Source: a virus (lineage: Duplodnaviria > Heunggongvirae > Uroviricota > Caudoviricetes). Taken from it: a stretch of DNA of 20,784 bases. Shown here piece by piece: positions 7,427 to 20,784 of the stretch; position 1 is the first letter of the stretch, and each line of letters starts with the position of its first letter. The translations under genes and the position numbers were made by a program. Location of the stretch: IMG/VR virus record IMGVR_UViG_2585427760_000005. The stretch is one strand, 5' to 3'. The notes under the pieces are model-generated. The model searched no databases. It was not told where the DNA came from and saw only the letters and a list, made by a program, of their open reading frames with translations.

Positions 7427-8618
7427 TTACTTATCCTCGATGGCGTCATACTCAAGCAAGTTATCCATACACTTCTCGAGTTTGTAGAAGTCGGTGAGGG
7501 GATAGAGGTGAACAATACTATCGTCAAAATTCTTGATCCCTGACAGGCGCTCAGTGCGTCTCAAAAACCTTGACGCTGACTTTACTTTGTCTCCCTCATC
7601 CGGCTCGCATGTGTATTCTAGTGTTTTGAGTACTTGCCAAGATACGGGAGGAGTTAGCTTAAACATTTTAATTAATTTTGGACAAAAATCCTTTGAGATA
7701 GTTTGTTGGTAAGTAACTTTTGGTGGGAGTACAACGTTGATTGACTTGTCTCCATCATTTGTTTTAACCATTTTAGTTGATCTGTAAGCGATACCAACAA
7801 TGTTAGAATTTCCTCGGCGGCTGATCCATTGCATTAATAAATTAGGGATGATGTATTCCTGAGTAAACGATGTGCTGCTATTTTTTTTTTCTAAAGTTAC
7901 AAGCATAAATTAAAGGCATCAAACAAATATATGACATTTTTGTAAGATATGGCATTTCGTCGTCATTAACTATGCCATAAAATCGTGAGTATAGAATTTC
8001 GGAAGTGAAGTCTAATATTTTAGAATCCTTTTCATTTGATGAGTAAGAGGATATATATAATTTATCAAAGTCTGGCTTATCCATTTCCAGCCAGCAGACA
8101 TACAAGGAAGAGCCAAGATATAAGCAGGGTAAGCCTGCAACAGAGTATCTTTGCGCATTGACTAGATGCCGCATAGAGAAAGGAATATGAAACATCTCTT
8201 TTCTATCTTTTATAGATGAGTCGGATTTTCTGACCCGGAAAAGAGGCTTGGATTCGTTGCATATCTTATTAAGTGGCGTGGATATGTGGTGAATATAACG
8301 AAATGTTGCATTGTCAGAAAATGTACTGTCAAAAATGTCATACGCTGATTTTATGTCACCAGATAAAAATTTTTCCAAGGAAAGTACTATGCCAAAATAT
8401 ATCTCACTTATTTTTTCTAAACGTCGGCCAATTCTCTTGGATAATTCATTGTCATTGTTTTCAGCATAGTCATTTATAATGTTGAAGTAGATTTGACATT
8501 TATTCTTGAAATCACTGATTATGTCGGACTCTACCGTAAATGGTAAGTTTAATCTTTTTTCTTTGACTGTAAGTGAAAATATTTTATTTAAGCCGTCAGA
8601 TAAACTCTCGCTTCCCAT
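7427..8618 (-). pseudogene. AT-rich gene with RES-domain-like motif (candidate NAD-targeting toxin/defense effector), split into 246-aa and 159-aa ORFs by a +1 frameshift in an A10 homopolymer (T10 at 7881-7890 on the + strand)
   Basis: ORFs 7878..8618 and 7427..7906 overlap by 29 nt in adjacent frames. ORF1 ends ...NFRKKK* inside the A10 run, and a run of A9 would read ...RKKNSSTSF... straight into ORF2 for a roughly 400-aa product. The motif FRVRKSD...RYSVAGLPCLYLGSSLYVCWLEM resembles the RES-domain core. An AAGGA RBS overlaps the stop codon of the upstream integrase. Confidence 0.45.
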
Positions 8619-9652: not shown

Positions 9653-10285
9653 TTAGAGGCTCTTGATCACTTTTACAGCACGTCCGATAGCTTCAATATC
9701 ATCTACTGAGCATTCAAACGAAGATTCATCCTGATGGACCGCTAATTTGTTTCCTGGAAGCCGTGTTAATTTCACGATGCTTTTAACCCCATCAATATCA
9801 ACGAGCCATAGTCCATTTGTAATCTGTTTCAGTGATTGATCGACTACATAACTTTCATGAGCATTGTTGACGAATAAACAGTGAACAGGTTCATTCGGGA
9901 GAATGCTGTGATCGAGGTGAATATCCTCATTATCAGTTAAGCAGCCATTTTCTAGCGTTACTTGCTTGATCGATGGCGCGACAAGCTTTGCAAGAGGTCG
10001 AATTGTAGGTGAGGTCTCATTTTGAGGTTTTTTTACAGCCTCGTTTTGAGCGTACATCTCACCATGGCCAGTAGCCAACCACAGTAAAGAAACCCCCGTT
10101 TCGAGCGCGCACTGAATTACCCAGTCAGCAGGGAAGCTATCACGTAACAGTCTGTTTGACATAGTGCTTTTTGAAACGCCAAGCTGCTCACTTAGAGCCT
10201 GCTTTGTCTTAAGCCCATAAGCCTTTTGCAGCCGATCGATAGCTTCTCTACCCCCTGAATCGGCACCCATTGAAATACTCGCCAT
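9653..10285 (-). CDS. cI: Phage CI-type immunity repressor (186 CI-like, HTH N-terminal domain)
   Basis: A GGAG RBS 7 nt upstream supports a start at 10285 (MASISMGADSGG...). The segment AYGLKTKQALSEQLGVSKSTMSNRL...CALETGVSLLWLATGHGE is HTH-like and resembles 186 CI. Located between int and a divergent apl-like gene. The track start at 10375 would run through the operator region. Confidence 0.7.
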   Translation of the reverse strand: MASISMGADSGGREAIDRLQKAYGLKTKQALSEQLGVSKSTMSNRLLRDSFPADWVIQCALETGVSLLWLATGHGEMYAQNEAVKKPQNETSPTIRPLAKLVAPSIKQVTLENGCLTDNEDIHLDHSILPNEPVHCLFVNNAHESYVVDQSLKQITNGLWLVDIDGVKSIVKLTRLPGNKLAVHQDESSFECSVDDIEAIGRAVKVIKSL

Positions 10286-10406
10286 TGAAAAACTCCGTTT
10301 GACAACCTTGAATCGGGATCGTAATGTTGCGTTGACTCTTGAATTGAGGTCTTGAGAGTCGACATAAAACGACATAAAACGAATCTAAACCGAGAGATAC
10401 TGCACT
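10286..10406. promoter_or_regulatory. Lysis-lysogeny switch region between divergent cI and apl-like genes; contains an exact 10-bp tandem direct repeat GACATAAAAC x2 (10361-10380)
   Basis: Intergenic region between the divergent repressor and early operon, with the tandem repeat visible in sequence. Promoter and operator positions were not resolved. Confidence 0.4.
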
Positions 10407-12815: not shown

Positions 12816-13657
12816 GCACCATCCTGAAATGGGCTGGCAATAAAACTGCCATCATGCCGGAATTGAAAAAACATCTGCCAGCAGGCCAGCGCCTTGTTGA
12901 ACCTTTCGCGGGTTCGTGCGCTGTCATGATGGCGACAGACTATCCTCATTATCTTGTCGCAGATGTTAATCCTGATCTGATAAATCTGTATCAAGCAATT
13001 AAAGATGACGTTAACGGATTTGCTCACTTGGCTGAGCGGGTTTTTTCTAAGTTCACAACGGAAGAAGCCTATTATAAATGCCGTCAGTATTTTAATACTG
13101 CGCCTTTGGATTACATGGACAAGGCGGCTTATTTTCTTTTCCTTAATCGCCATTGTTATCGCGGGTTATGCCGTTATAACCAGCGCGGCCTGTTTAACGT
13201 CCCGTACGGTAATTACAAAAAACCTTATCTGCCCGTTAATGAAATACGTGCATTTGCCGAAAAGGCAAAGCGTGCCACCTTCATTTGCGCCAACTATGAG
13301 GAAACATTGGCAATGCTGCAGCCGGGGGATGTTATCTACTGCGACCCTCCGTATGACGGTACATTTTCCACTTACCACACTGACGGATTTACTGAGGATG
13401 ATCAGTATCATCTGGCGTCTATCCTTGAACGTCGCTCATCAGAAGGTCATCCGGTCATCGTGTCCAATAGCGACACATCCCTGACCCGTTCACTTTATCG
13501 TAATTTTACCCACCATCGCATCACTGCAAAACGCAGCATGGGCGTGGCTGCCGGTGAAGGTAAATCTGCAGCTGAAATCATCGCGACGAAATCAGCTGTT
13601 TGCTTCGGTGTAGATCTTGCCAGCTGTACAAACCGTTATGTTGAGGTGCGCGTATGA
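12812..13657 (+). CDS. dam: DNA adenine methyltransferase, Dam family (orphan, phage-encoded)
   Basis: 281 aa with [48 protein letters not shown] and the catalytic DPPY motif ([10 protein letters not shown]), collinear with E. coli Dam. Confidence 0.88.
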
Positions 13658-14973
13658 ACCATTCCGCAGCAGTAATTGTGCCTACAGATATCAGTGTGAT
13701 GGTTCGTGAAATAGAGGTTTCATACAACCACTTTCTGAATGAATTTCGTATTCCAGCTGATCACAAAATTGTCGTTAACTTCTCTGCCGGAAAAGACAGC
13801 ACGACAACAGCGGCAATTGCACATCATCTTTTTGGTGATCGCGTACAAAACGTAATGGCTGATACAGACAATGAACATGAATTAACCGTCGACTTTGCGC
13901 GAAATATTCATCATCAAATTGGTTGTAAGCCTGTGCAGATAGTTAAGCGTATATACACCGAGGTTGAATTTGAACGTCGCCGTAAATCGCTTAATGAGCG
14001 CTGGTCAAAGCGTCAGGCGATCCGCATGGGCGCTTATCGTGGCGTAATTATGCCATCACTGGCGAGATCAGATACCAAATTTGGTCAGGAATGGCTACGT
14101 ACTGCTGAACGCTGGGGGATTCAGTTTGAAACGGCTCTGGAGGCTGCTCTTTCAGTCATGCACCCGACTGGTAATAGCTTTCTCGATGCCGCTCTGTTGC
14201 ACGGCAAATTCCCGATGATGCGCGATCGCTTTTGTACTGATGAACTCAAGATTCAAATCGCGTTCGATGCGGCAATAAAACCACTTCTTGATGATGGTGA
14301 GGTGGTCGTTCAGTGGTCTGGAGTGCGTGCAGATGAGTCCGACAAACGCGCCGGTTACGCAAGATTTGCACACGATGAACGCGATCCAAACTTTCTCTAT
14401 AACTTCCTGCCAATCCATAAATGGACGGCGGCTAATGTTTTCGCCTTACATAAATATTTCGGTATTAAACCAAACCCACTTTACCTGCAAGGCGCTGACC
14501 GTGTTGGCTGCATGAACTGTGTTTTATGTACCAAAGAAGAAATTGCGCAGACTGCAGCACGCTGGCCTGAGCATATCGAAAAACATCATGAGTGGGAGAA
14601 AAAAGTACGGCTGGCATCGCGCTGGGTTCACTGGATGAGCATCGGCACAGTTAGCCAGTCATGGATGCGTGCTCAGTTAGGCGTTAGAGATGTTATCCGG
14701 TTTGAACTCGATGAAGTGACGGGAGAGGAAGTAGCGCGACGTAGGCGCTATCCAGTCAATCTAGGCCAGAATGTGAAACTGTATGGACTGGAGCCAGATG
14801 TTCAGCACATCGACTGGTCAGGATTCTATGGTCCGCGTGGAAATATGGGGGCTCCGTCAGCGCTTGATGTTGTCGAATGGGCCAAGACTGGTCGTGGTGG
14901 CAAGGTCTACGACTTAGTCAAAGCCAGTATGGACACTTCAGTGTGCTCATCACGATATGGTCTTTGTGAATGA
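13654..14973 (+). CDS. PAPS-reductase-like (PP-loop ATP pyrophosphatase superfamily) protein, phage-encoded; possible DNA-modification enzyme
   Basis: 439 aa with the PP-loop motif [10 protein letters not shown] near the N-terminus and a cysteine cluster (CMNCVLC) later. ATGA-coupled to dam upstream and to gene A downstream. Confidence 0.65.
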
Positions 14974-17485: not shown

Positions 17486-17516
17486 TTTGTTGGTGGTAGT
17501 AGAGATAGGAGGGAAA

Positions 17517-17705
17517 ATGCAGGATTACCTTTTGGAGTCTTTGAAACTCCAGCGTATTGATTTTTTTATCAAGCTTGTAGCGGCTAGTGAATGTAGTGAT
17601 GAAGAGAAGCGACTTGCTATCCAGTGGGTTTCTGAGCTGACGGATGAGTTGATGGCGAAAATCAGGAGTCATGAATACACTCGCTCTATGGATCTTCCCG
17701 GTTAG
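17517..17705 (+). CDS. Small SOS-regulated protein (62 aa) in the position of the 186 tum antirepressor; function unverified
   Basis: AGGAGG RBS 4-5 nt before the ATG at 17517, with a LexA box upstream. The track ORF starts earlier at 17487. Confidence 0.5.
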   Translation: MQDYLLESLKLQRIDFFIKLVAASECSDEEKRLAIQWVSELTDELMAKIRSHEYTRSMDLPG

Positions 17706-17718
17706 CAACAGGAACGTT

Positions 17719-17749
17719 GCTGACGTGAGAATCAGATTCTCGCGTCAGC
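17719..17749. other. 31-bp near-perfect palindrome (15-bp arms, one G-T mismatch, 1-nt spacer) just downstream of the small SOS gene
   Basis: GCTGACGTGAGAATC-A-GATTCTCGCGTCAGC, with a smaller hairpin (AGCAAC...GTTGCT) at 17703-17720 immediately before it. No T-tract on either strand. Confidence 0.35.
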
Positions 17750-17995
17750 GAGGTTGAACAACGAGCAAGGTGAGGTGTTCAGCTTTTAGTGGTTTTTTTG
17801 GTATCAAAGCACTATATGTAGCTATCTGAGCAGTGCCGGTTGAATTACGATCAGTTTTTCTTGTCGTAGTCGCCAAAATGAGATAGATAAACGGTTCCAC
17901 AAGATGTTCGCGACCCGGCATTGTTCTATAATCAGGTCATAACAAAAAGAATTAGCAGCAATGCCACATGTATGTAGGCACAGCGAGGAGGTCGT

Positions 17996-18190
17996 ATGAC
18001 TAAGATTTTTGGAAAAATTATCTCAACCCCAGGTCGATGGATGCAGGGTGTTATCCAGCAAGAGATTGAGCAGTCCAACAACAGTAAAATTACTACTGAT
18101 GCTAATGGTAACGCGGTTCTGAACATGGATAATAAGCAGGTTCGGGAATCAATGCAGGCCAGAATGAAAGAGCTTGCTGCAAAACGTTAA
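17996..18190 (+). CDS. Hypothetical small soluble protein (64 aa), first gene of a two-gene module
   Basis: Strong RBS GAGGAGG 4 nt upstream of the ATG. A TATAAT -10-like hexamer lies about 65 nt upstream. AT-rich. Confidence 0.55.
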   Translation: MTKIFGKIISTPGRWMQGVIQQEIEQSNNSKITTDANGNAVLNMDNKQVRESMQARMKELAAKR

Positions 18191-18199
18191 GGATAAACG

Positions 18200-19006
18200 A
18201 TGGGACCATTGGTCATAATGGTTGTACTTGTATGCGGGTTTTGGTACACAGAGAATCACTACCAATCCCGCATACGCCATGCAAGAACTAACGGCTGGAC
18301 ATCATACTTCTATGTTGCAATGCATGGATGTAAATTTGTCATTCAAGGCTTTGGTTTTATTTTGTTTATATACCTTTCGCTACTTGCAATAAGCCTAATT
18401 ATCTCAATCCCTCACGTATTTTCAGCTTCATACGGAATGAAAGACCTTTATTCATGGCTGACTGAAAAGACGCTCCTTTCCTATCCGATGTTTTTTGTGC
18501 TTTCCATGGCGGTTGCCTGTTTACTTGCTTATGTGGCGGGGGATGTAGCTAGGAAAGCCATAAAAAACGAAGAGGTTAGACAGGCGGCTTATCGTGAAAT
18601 GGCAGCAATGGATGGTGTTGAGTCCCTTTTGGTGCAGGCGATTGATGAAGATATGCTGATTTTTGTAACACTAAAATCGCGCAAAGTTTACATCGGATAT
18701 GTTGCTGCACCTCGTATCGAGCACAGCCACACACAGCATTTAGCGATTATCCCTTACATCAGCGGATATCGTGATAAAGATACCCTGCGCTACCATGAAC
18801 AGCACCGCTACTATGAACTGTATCTGGAAGAAGGAATTGCTGCCAATAAGCATGAGCGTGGGCTGAACCTACAACATTTCCGACATGTGATACCAATGGA
18901 TCAGGTAGAAGCTGTTTCATTGTTTGATACACATACCTATGTGTCATTTGACAACTACTCTGTGCCAGAGAAATCAGAGCAGGACACTCAGGATACTACT
19001 GCATGA
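18200..19006 (+). CDS. Hypothetical membrane protein (268 aa; 3-4 predicted N-terminal transmembrane helices plus a roughly 150-aa soluble C-terminal domain)
   Basis: AAGGA RBS 9 nt after the upstream stop. Hydrophobic stretches LVIMVVLVCGFW, FVIQGFGFILFIYLSLLAISLIISI and MFFVLSMAVACLLAYVAG. Followed by a terminator. Confidence 0.6.
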   Translation: MGPLVIMVVLVCGFWYTENHYQSRIRHARTNGWTSYFYVAMHGCKFVIQGFGFILFIYLSLLAISLIISIPHVFSASYGMKDLYSWLTEKTLLSYPMFFVLSMAVACLLAYVAGDVARKAIKNEEVRQAAYREMAAMDGVESLLVQAIDEDMLIFVTLKSRKVYIGYVAAPRIEHSHTQHLAIIPYISGYRDKDTLRYHEQHRYYELYLEEGIAANKHERGLNLQHFRHVIPMDQVEAVSLFDTHTYVSFDNYSVPEKSEQDTQDTTA

Positions 19007-19054
19007 CTATGCCGCATGAATCCGCATGATCGTTTGAAGATCGTTTTAGCTGAG

Positions 19055-19079
19055 GCCCGCTAGGAATGGCGGGCTTTTT
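19055..19079 (+). terminator. Rho-independent terminator (GCCCGC / GCGGGC stem, TTTTT tract)
   Basis: GGCCCGCTAGGAATGGCGGGCTTTTT, immediately after the 18200..19006 gene. Confidence 0.6.
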
Positions 19080-19268
19080 CATACGTCATGCAGTTGCATG
19101 AAAACCACTACACAAAGCGGGCAGGCGTGGCGGGGATACGAGCGCGCGCTGGCACTTTGGATGATCGCTTCACCTGTATGAATGACCACCTTGAAAACTT
19201 GATTGTTCTGGACTTAAGTATGTACTTTATATTCGGAATAATCCGAATTGCTGAAAAGGATTCATGTG

Positions 19269-20290
19269 ATGATAGAAGAATTAACGATCAGAAATGCGGG
19301 TTCATATACTGGGCCAGAACAAAAATTGCATGGTTTATCTACATTTAATTATCTTTATGGAGCTAATGGTGCAGGTAAAACTACTATTAGTAAAATAATT
19401 AATGACCCAGATAATTATCCCGACTGCTTAATTCAGTGGAAAAACGCCAATAAGTTAATTAGTTATGTTTATAATAAGGATTTTGTTGACGATAATTTTA
19501 GTCAAGATAAAATAAAAGGTGTTTTTACCCTAGGGAGCGATATTAAAGGTGCACAAGAGAAGTTGATTTTATTAAATGAGGAAAGAAGTAAGCTTCAAGA
19601 AAAAATAACTACTAAACAAAAATTGTTAAAGGGTAGCTCTGATGATGTGGGTGTTATTAATGAACTGATTGAACAAGATAAAACTTTTAAAGACATTTGT
19701 TGGAAGCAAAAGCAAAAGCATGATGAGGTTTTTTTCAAGGCTTTTGAAGGCTTAAGGAACAGTACTGAAAAATTTAAAGCTCGAGTCCTTTCTGAATTCG
19801 AACAGAACACTGCAGCTTTACTACCACTAAGTGAACTTACTGAAAAGTGCCGTACAGTATTCTCGGATGAACTAGTTTCATACACGCCATTATCTATTCC
19901 TAAATTTGATGGGTTTAAATCTATTTTAAATCATGATATATGGCAGGAGAAAATACTGGGGAAAAAAGATGTCAGCGTTGCTGATTTGATTAGCCTATTA
20001 AATAATAGTGACTGGGTAAAAAGAGGTTTGGAATATTTTCACGAATCGAAGCCCACGTGCCCATTTTGTCAGCAGAATGTCAGTGATGATATTTTTCATA
20101 ATCTCTCATCTTACTTTGATGAAACATATAATAAAAAACAACAACTAATAAATAGATTGCTTTCTGAGTATCATAATCATATACAACGCTTAAAATGGGA
20201 ACTTGATAACATTAGGGATGCAAAGTTACCATTTGTCGATATCGAGACATTTGAAGACAAATCTAATATCATCATTTCTCTTTTAATTAG
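19269..20290 (+). pseudogene. ABC-type (AAA_13/RloC-like) ATPase, N-terminal half with Walker A and coiled-coil CxxC hook-like motif; 3' part removed or displaced by an IS5 insertion at 20290/20291
   Basis: MIEELTIRNAGSY...NYLYGANGAGKTTISKII (Walker A), a K/E/L-rich coiled-coil segment, then CPFCQQ. The ORF runs into the IS5 terminal repeat at 20291, so the last roughly 36 codons of the track ORF (to 20399) are IS5-derived read-through. An AAGGA RBS lies before the ATG at 19269. Confidence 0.65.

Positions 20291-20784
<494 letters not shown>

Follow-up and report, generated by a model that had tools for sequence, protein, structure and literature searches.

The region between gpA and gpQ of P2-like phages is an experimentally established hotspot for defence genes (Rousset 2022, PMC9122126; Moura de Sousa 2026, PMC13586616). 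Within this region the P2 genome has tin and old, which lie between gene A and cosR. The present work concerns a pair of genes in the corresponding region of a 20,784-nucleotide stretch of viral DNA (IMG/VR record IMGVR_UViG_2585427760_000005, hereafter the window), which is a contig of E. coli 1-250-04_S3_C1 with a 186/P2-type prophage. A small gene encoding 64 amino acids (aa) is followed by a large gene encoding a predicted membrane protein of 268 aa, and an earlier note, made without database searches, had picked out the two as a possible abortive-infection or exclusion system. The pair is a mobile two-gene cargo cassette, or moron, that quite possibly works in the manner of a toxin-antitoxin (TA) system and acts at the membrane to exclude phages or abort their infection, a function suggested by its context and its architecture.

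The nearest described relative is found in a survey of P2 loci, in which the large protein alone is listed as system #43, present in 93 of 18,150 P2 loci, with "2 TM" (transmembrane segments, the number given by Phobius) and no Pfam domain, and in which the pair of E. coli CFT073 is entered as "hypothetical + hypothetical" (Rousset 2022, Tables S5B and S5A respectively, PMC9122126). The system #43 protein is 69% identical to the large protein of the window over 260 residues, it is of the same family and occupies the same gpA-gpQ hotspot, but it is listed as a single gene without the small partner and without a domain or fold assignment. The family is already catalogued, but as far as the literature searched shows it has never been characterised.

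Tin and Old of P2 are encoded in the same slot between gene A and cos and are likewise non-essential cargo with a promoter of their own. They differ in being soluble proteins, encoded on the opposite strand and without similarity to the large protein by tblastn, with Old being a nuclease of the AAA/OLD family. A functional analogy can be drawn with lambda RexAB and with membrane-toxin TA systems, in which a soluble partner and a multi-TM inner-membrane protein are expressed in the lysogen and depolarisation of the membrane is expected. The pair has no homology to these, and here it is the 64-aa partner that comes first, followed by a protein with three predicted TM helices and an Sm-like barrel. 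Similar in architecture are the CBASS effectors Cap15/S-2TMbeta, with N-terminal TM helices and a small beta-rich cytoplasmic domain, but these are found with a cyclase and belong to PF18153, whereas the large protein has a 64-aa partner and no PF18153 match. The predicted C-terminal domain itself has the topology of Sm/LSm/Hfq proteins and of the MscS beta-domain, a helix and a strongly bent five-stranded barrel; it differs from Sm/LSm/Hfq in an insertion between strands 4 and 5, in being membrane-anchored and in having no sequence relationship to them. Rings of six or seven subunits are usual for Sm domains. If the pair is defensive, it would be a variation on the theme of a soluble partner plus a membrane effector, with an unprecedented Sm-like effector domain.

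A conserved gene pair

The two genes are as follows.

17996-18190, + strand: small partner gene, an open reading frame (ORF) of 64 aa
18200-19006, + strand: large membrane-protein gene, an ORF of 268 aa

Both are in the same reading frame with 9 nt between them. A Shine-Dalgarno sequence, AGGAGG (17986-17991), can be read 4 nt 5' of the first ATG, and the ribosome-binding site (RBS) of the large gene, AAGGA (18189-18193), overlaps the stop codon of the small gene and lies 6 nt 5' of the second ATG. These are the strong RBSs that had been noticed earlier, and the two genes are translationally coupled. In the original record the small gene is given 49 aa; the start that gives 64 aa is backed by the RBS and by conserved N-terminal residues. 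First searches returned 112 homologues of the large protein and 52 of the small protein, the conserved parts have a non-synonymous divergence (dN) of 0.01-0.2 against saturated synonymous change (dS), and the two genes are co-conserved over about 160 loci. Given these homologues, the low dN and the co-conservation, both are real genes and not chance ORFs, and the description of a self-contained two-gene cassette holds.

The family of the large protein is extensive. Searched with a profile, 1.84 billion cluster representatives (50% identity clusters) yielded 2,810 relatives at E<=1e-3 and 1,833 at E<=1e-10, reaching from the Enterobacterales to the Acidobacteriota and Balneolaceae. Pairing was followed in a genomic sample of 80 species-representative loci and a viral sample of 80 IMG/VR loci. 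A homologue of the small protein is directly upstream of the large gene at 66 of the genomic loci; at 13 of the remaining 14 (Acidobacteriota, Methylophilaceae, Balneolaceae) the same abutting position is held by three further sub-families of small ORF in which the hairpin-helix signature is recognisable by eye, and the last (L076) has a similar small ORF without a statistical link. In the viral sample the partner is adjacent at 77 loci, with the other three either cut by a contig end or partial. The gap between the genes is -4 to +9 nt in 49 of the 66 pairs, and the divergences of the small and large proteins correlate (Spearman rho 0.65). Away from the large gene, the 9,784 ORFs examined had no match to the small protein except for a single overlapping call in L078. 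Because adjacency is near-universal (the 77 viral and about 79 of the 80 genomic loci), the gaps are tight and divergence is correlated, the two genes are an obligate two-component unit.

This layout, with a small upstream gene tightly coupled to a large downstream gene and the pair co-conserved, is that of TA systems, and it bears on whether the pair might be an addiction module and nothing else, in which the membrane protein is the toxin and a labile small protein the antitoxin, serving to stabilise the mobile element with no anti-phage role. The classic type II order, the tight coupling or overlap, a promoter of its own and a disordered segment in the small protein would all suit such a module, as would its free movement between element types, its presence in several copies in some genomes and its position beside hokD in one Rac-like prophage. 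Against this, addiction is of little use to a prophage integrated in the chromosome, the slots used are specifically those of exclusion genes, no known TA domain was found and the small protein has no recognisable DNA-binding fold. Addiction pure and simple is therefore distinctly improbable, and since many TA modules in such slots act as abortive-infection systems it also overlaps with the reading of the pair as a system for phage exclusion or abortive infection.

Upstream of the pair lie, in order, a Dam methylase, a PAPS-reductase-like gene, replication gene A (Pfam Phage_GPA, E = 5e-130) and a 72-aa ORF in phrog_698, with a homologue of cos on the 3' side. The hotspot comprises two cargo slots, one from gene A to cos and the other from cos to portal gene Q, and the first of these, which holds tin and old in P2, holds the pair in the window. 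On gene order the pair thus occupies the tin/old-equivalent slot of P2, as had been proposed. Its composition also sets it apart from the early operon in the way described before, at 41-45% GC against 52-59% for gene A, and it is not a core gene, being found in at least 29 of 5,426 complete E. coli genomes (blastn) and in the small number of P2 loci given above for system #43.

The two predicted proteins

An AlphaFold2 (AF2) model of the large protein, built from a 35-sequence alignment, has a predicted local distance difference test score (pLDDT) of 87.5 and a predicted template modelling score (pTM) of 0.73. Its parts are as follows.

Residues 3-19: TM1, within an AF2 helix at 2-19 that is hydrophobic by Kyte-Doolittle
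About residues 20-43: loop 1, basic and cytoplasmic, with an invariant G-W...Y...G motif
Residues 35-68: TM2, within an AF2 helix at 33-68 that is hydrophobic by Kyte-Doolittle
Residues 69-96: loop 2, periplasmic
Residues 97-119: TM3, within an AF2 helix at 97-122 that is hydrophobic by Kyte-Doolittle
Residues ~124-149: linker helices leading into the beta-domain
Residues ~151-250 (nt 18650-18949, + strand): predicted cytoplasmic Sm-like beta-barrel, from AF2 and Foldseek

The strands of the beta-domain are at 153-158, 162-168, 180-191, 198-203, 229-232 and 236-242 in the model. Across the family the net charge is +2.5 in loop 1 and -1.0 in loop 2, which by the positive-inside rule places the N-terminus in the periplasm and the beta-domain in the cytoplasm. 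The large protein is therefore predicted to lie in the inner membrane, N-out and C-in, its three TM helices being followed by an Sm-like barrel in the cytoplasm. Of the three or four TM helices and cytoplasmic C-terminal domain expected in the earlier note, hydropathy, AF2 and the positive-inside rule uphold the cytoplasmic C-terminus and three helices, not four. The C-terminal domain had been thought to lack any recognisable motif, but Foldseek gives it an Sm-like barrel fold. All of the best 50 matches in the PDB were Sm/LSm proteins (probability 0.9-1.0, E ~0.02, target TM-score 0.6-0.70), an assignment that rests on the AF2 model and not on a solved structure, and the Foldseek viral library returned the same kind of small barrels, including an Sm-like viral protein.

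The invariant residues of the family cluster at two sites. One, where TM2 begins on the cytoplasmic side, has the motif G-W...Y...A...G with G32/W33; the other consists of two loops of the barrel, L-x-S-R-K-V-Y-x-G with S160-R161-K162, and S-G-x-R-D-K-D-x-L with S188-G189 and R191-D192-K193-D194. The segment from TM2 through the loop to TM3 (residues 46-118, nt 18335-18553) changes 4-30 times faster in protein sequence than the N-terminal and barrel regions among close homologues, with a dN of 0.3-0.6, and this could be either relaxed constraint or diversifying selection.

The small protein is basic (isoelectric point 10) with no TM or other hydrophobic segment and no signal peptide, in agreement with the soluble protein that had been described. 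In its AF2 model residues 1-13 are disordered, residues 32-42 form a beta-hairpin and residues 47-63 a helix, with a pLDDT above 90 over residues ~30-63, and it is predicted to be cytosolic, basic and partly disordered. The model has no fold match in the PDB. Its core motif is D-x-x-G-x-x-x-phi-N followed by the helix and reaches as far as copies in Neisseria and Shewanella. In NCBI and UniRef, several homologues of 62-70 aa (P0394, P0395, P0400, P0409 and others) are called "multidrug ABC transporter ATPase", a propagated mis-annotation, as they are far too short for such a protein.

Neither protein reaches threshold in Pfam, NCBIfam or PADLOC, although both fall in PHROGs that have no known function, the small protein in phrog_22451 (1.6e-27) and the large protein in phrog_3630 (2e-79). 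The pair thus belongs to no named system, and here the PADLOC check bears out what had been suspected from the sequence. Matches to DUF6338 (PF19865) that cover the TM region and the first part of the barrel recur below threshold, at 16.5 bits for the protein of the window and 14.8-25.1 bits for members (best P0309) against a gathering cut-off of 26.5; this resemblance concerns the large protein only, and DUF6338 is itself without known function. The profile of the family matched no solved structure among PDB sequences. Pfam LSM and Hfq were not matched in scans of family members (in one of these scans, among the best 25 of 29 families), and a link to Hfq at the level of sequence was rejected, with hhalign of the family profile against E. 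coli Hfq giving a probability of 0.9%. In tblastn against 50,697 phage records, including P2 (NC_001895), the large protein matched 10 records but not that of P2; for the small protein no direct search against P2 was made.

Membership of CBASS was suggested by the UniRef name "SMODS-associating 2TM beta-strand rich effector" on an Aeromonas homologue, P0101, which is 30% identical. No match to Pfam S_2TMBeta (PF18153) was listed in hmmscan of 35 members (E<=1) and 8 distant ones including P0101 (E<=10), 42 distinct proteins in all, and the chain of Cap15 was not found by the family profile among PDB sequences. There is no CD-NTase/SMODS cyclase beside the pair in the window, where the neighbours are gene A, the 72-aa ORF and an AAA_13 ATPase, and no cyclase family occurs among the Pfam-annotated neighbours at the 26 places examined. 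As there is no PF18153 match, no PDB sequence match and no neighbouring cyclase, membership of the S-2TMbeta effectors was rejected.

Genomic contexts and possible function

It is apparent that the pair travels widely. The P2-type slot between genes A and Q accounts for 44 of the 80 IMG/VR loci and is also where the pair is found in CFT073, ETEC4091, phages SEN4 and SEN5, Klebsiella phage ST15-OXA48phi14.1, Citrobacter and Salmonella diarizonae. In P2-like prophages of Aeromonas, which lie at different host sites, it is at the prophage end after tail gene D; in Pseudoalteromonas phage C5a it is in the lysogeny region near the repressor, and in a myovirus it is inside the tail-gene cluster on the opposite strand. 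It is also carried on an integrative conjugative element (ICE) and on plasmids, and at many places in chromosomes it has housekeeping genes on either side. Copies with an identity of 90% or more are spread over Escherichia, Klebsiella, Edwardsiella, Citrobacter, Kluyvera and Raoultella, and some genomes have several copies, such as Photorhabdus akhurstii (L019, L034, L050). Decayed copies of the large gene were seen on a plasmid of Pseudomonas silvicola (L017) and in Pantoea septica (L020), one truncated at 87 aa and the other without its N-terminus. The cassette is not tied to one type of mobile element. The earlier description of the pair as cargo of the P2 hotspot is correct in that it does lie in the P2 slot, but it is not specific to P2, given its presence in lambdoid phages, an ICE, plasmids, a defence island, chromosomal islets and a fixed site in Rahnella.

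At one place the pair adjoins a type III restriction-modification system and a Schlafen-like ATPase, and elsewhere its defence-type neighbours include a type VI retron, a CHAT-NB-ARC-TPR (CHAT-STAND) protein and an SNF2-PLD protein. An apparent association with a C39 bacteriocin-type ABC exporter at 18 loci proved to be an artefact of single-linkage clustering on the generic ABC ATPase fold, with only one of the proteins having a C39 domain.

A further context is the slot between antiterminator Q and the holin in lambdoid prophages of Serratia and Gilliamella, where the pair would therefore be on the late transcript. This position, together with the predicted inner-membrane location of the large protein, bears on whether the pair might be an accessory of the phage life cycle, that is a modulator of lysis timing or of the holin, or a superinfection-immunity factor serving the carrier phage only. 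The sole holin-family signal was to Phage_holin_3_6 in one of 35 members (E = 0.015), which is at the level of chance, and no holin, spanin or antiholin family was significant among the matches listed. In the P2-type relatives the holin and lysozyme genes follow the capsid genes, far from the pair, which moreover more than 99% of P2-like prophages lack and which is present on an ICE, on plasmids and at chromosomal sites free of phage. A life-cycle role is thus very improbable. Homology to holins, spanins or tin, or a place among the core genes, had been named in advance as what would speak against a cargo module; no such homology was found and the pair is not core. In the Serratia lambdoid prophages that carry the cassette a protein of the Acb2/Tad1-hairpin family is encoded just after the lysis genes (L097-L100, ~10122-10403; L098, 10697-10978). 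This is a family of anti-CBASS/anti-Thoeris sponges.

The chromosomal loci point in another direction. In nine Rahnella species the pair is at one shared chromosomal site, between a permease and a FAA hydrolase, which has the look of a physiological gene passed on vertically, and many species of Pantoea, Photorhabdus and Xenorhabdus have the pair in the chromosome. Phage or integrase hallmark genes lie within 8 kb of at least 20 of the 80 genomic loci by a test that is insensitive and so gives a lower bound, leaving the other 60 without. The pair might then be a module of membrane physiology or lysogenic conversion unrelated to defence, for example a channel gated by a small regulator or an envelope-stress device, with TM helices and a small cytoplasmic barrel arranged as in MscS or NfeD, that raises the fitness of the host and is merely often found on mobile elements. 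Consistent with this are the great size and age of a family that extends to the Acidobacteriota and Balneolaceae, the weak relation to DUF6338 and strong purifying selection on the conserved parts. However, in the Enterobacteriaceae the pair is overwhelmingly cargo of phage moron slots and rare within species, near-identical copies cross genera, and some genomes hold several copies or decayed ones. Housekeeping membrane functions are also seldom recruited independently to the slots of P2, lambdoid phages, myovirus tails and ICEs. On balance we consider a purely physiological role unlikely, and for some explanation outside all of those discussed here there is only a slight chance.

The reading of the pair as a system for phage exclusion or abortive infection, the likeliest of those considered though at slightly less than even odds, draws on its position, mobility, rarity and obligate pairing, on its TA-like layout and on a multi-TM protein with a cytoplasmic domain of the kind that oligomerises. 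Several observations weigh against it. P2 hotspots also carry cargo that is not defensive, such as partition systems and a CDT toxin (PMC9122126), and the motif of the family occurs neither in the tables of cloned or tested systems in Rousset 2022 nor in the supplements to Vassallo 2022 and DefensePredictor. Searches of PADLOC, Pfam/NCBIfam and PDB sequences gave no homologue among validated defence or TA proteins, and few of the nearest neighbours at loci other than P2 matched a defence model. The Rahnella site and the 60 loci without a phage or integrase hallmark count on the same side. For the fast-changing segment from TM2 to TM3 the dN/dS is ~0.2 with dS saturated, and as synonymous sites are saturated positive selection cannot be claimed. 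Finally, ring formation, binding of the small to the large protein, toxicity and the trigger are steps that we infer.

If exclusion or abortive infection is nonetheless what the pair does, its mode of action might be as follows. Temperate phages and other mobile elements would carry the cassette for the benefit it brings to the lysogen. The Sm-like domains could assemble into a hexa- or heptameric ring, in the manner of Sm/LSm/Hfq and the MscS beta-domain, and such a ring would bring 18-21 TM helices together as a latent pore or a membrane-perturbing complex. The predicted topology puts the barrel in the cytoplasm, within reach of the small protein, which may bind to the cytoplasmic face (the barrel, the invariant G-W loop or both), probably through its beta-hairpin, and either keep the complex inactive or serve as a sensor. 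An infecting phage would then displace, titrate or degrade the small protein, or supply the barrel with a ligand for its basic KSRK/RDKD loops, whereupon the membrane protein would depolarise or permeabilise the inner membrane, with DNA entry blocked or the infection aborted.

More tentatively still, the family may be a new and widespread class of mobile-element immunity, in which a membrane-anchored Sm-like ring gated by a partner of 60-80 aa detects an infection at the inner membrane and then makes this membrane collapse or seals it, found in 2,800 or more clusters from Enterobacterales to Acidobacteriota and sharing no ancestry with known defence effectors. If protective, the pair would be a compact two-gene system of about 1.3 kb with a new effector fold, the membrane-tethered Sm-like barrel. 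The cassette is already common in prophages of clinically relevant Enterobacteriaceae (E. coli including CFT073, Klebsiella, Salmonella, Citrobacter), and therefore, if protective, it could affect the host range of phages used in therapy. As the family is large and strictly paired, the assignment of a function would annotate thousands of "hypothetical" gene pairs and two PHROG families, and if that function is not defensive it would reveal another kind of cargo spread by these hotspots. The present analysis also corrects the public record on two points, the single-gene "2 TM" entry of system #43 and the misleading name of a CBASS effector on one homologue.

Cassette boundaries and neighbouring cargo

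Three features delimit the cassette.

17713-17755, + strand: hairpin at the left cassette boundary and end of the early-operon backbone (RNA fold -29.4 kcal/mol, z = -6.5)
17756-17995, + strand: cassette leader, with a putative promoter and the Shine-Dalgarno sequence
19001-19150, + strand: block of P2-type backbone, not cargo (~93% identity in ~80 E. coli genomes)

The left hairpin has a near-perfect stem of 19 bp without a U-tract, and none of 200 shuffled sequences folded as well. Alignment shows it conserved at this boundary in [Erwinia] mediterraneensis and also in E. coli ETEC4091 and CFT073, where it comes after DinI, and it may be a site of RNA processing or termination, or a boundary for recombination and cassette exchange. 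Homology with the cassette of E. coli ETEC4091 begins at position 17743 of the window, therefore a leader of ~250 nt travels with the genes. The putative promoter in this leader has a -10 element TATAAT (17927-17932) and a weak -35 element ATGTTC (17904-17909), the latter being the reason that a generic promoter scan missed it. The -10 element is kept in all five aligned cassettes, as TATAAT in two and with one base changed in the other three, and these include the divergent CFT073 and Erwinia cassettes, whose flanks otherwise differ. No Rfam family matched the 250-nt leader or the rest of the module. In ETEC4091, CFT073, Cartapus and the Klebsiella phage the phrog_698 ORF is followed by DinI; in the window this gene is missing after the ORF (17487-17705, + strand), and the leader begins directly after the ORF and the hairpin.

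On the right, the terminator that had been assigned to the module is a real hairpin, terminator-like and followed by a T-run (19052-19077, -19.1 kcal/mol, z = -3.5), but it is part of the backbone, since the 19001-19150 block in which it sits, beside cos, is conserved at ~93% in genomes with different cargo. In addition to the ~80 E. coli genomes this block is conserved to about the same extent at both ends of the linear record of phage Cartapus, the first 59 nt of which are labelled as a putative cos site. The cos region of the window is at 19092-19150 with the homologue of the cohesive end at 19124-19142, where the right cohesive end of P2 (cosR), GGCGAGGCGGGGAAAGCAC, aligns with 14 of 19 bases identical.

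The second slot of the hotspot, between cos and Q, holds an AAA_13 ATPase (19248-20399, + strand) that matches the PADLOC candidate PDC-S06 (E = 8e-103). It is cut at ~20262 by an IS5 element, which runs to the end of the contig; in related contigs the gene is intact, with 777 aa, directly 5' of portal gene Q. In other phages this slot has AAA+RloB, TIGR02391, SEFIR or DUF4145 genes.

Between the Dam methylase and gene A of the early operon is a gene for a 439-aa protein with a PAPS-reductase domain (13654-14973, + strand), which has partial PADLOC matches to SspD, BrxP and DndC and may be a gene of DNA modification or counter-defence; a P2 relative of the Citrobacter type (L111) also has a PAPS_reduct-domain gene directly 5' of gene A. 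The interval between the prophage end and the integrase is a minor hotspot for P2 cargo (Moura de Sousa 2026, PMC13586616), and in the window it contains two overlapping ORFs on the - strand with no Pfam match (7427-7906 and 7878-8618). A related E. coli genome has a single gene of 343 aa in their place, thus the copy in the window may be frameshifted. Adjoining the prophage is the remnant of a CP4-57-like island (IS1, YfjJ-like, YfjI, AlpA, IntA) with a hypothetical protein of 515 aa (518-2065, + strand), a possible defence gene with a sub-threshold match to SIR2_2 (22.4 bits against a cut-off of 24.5).

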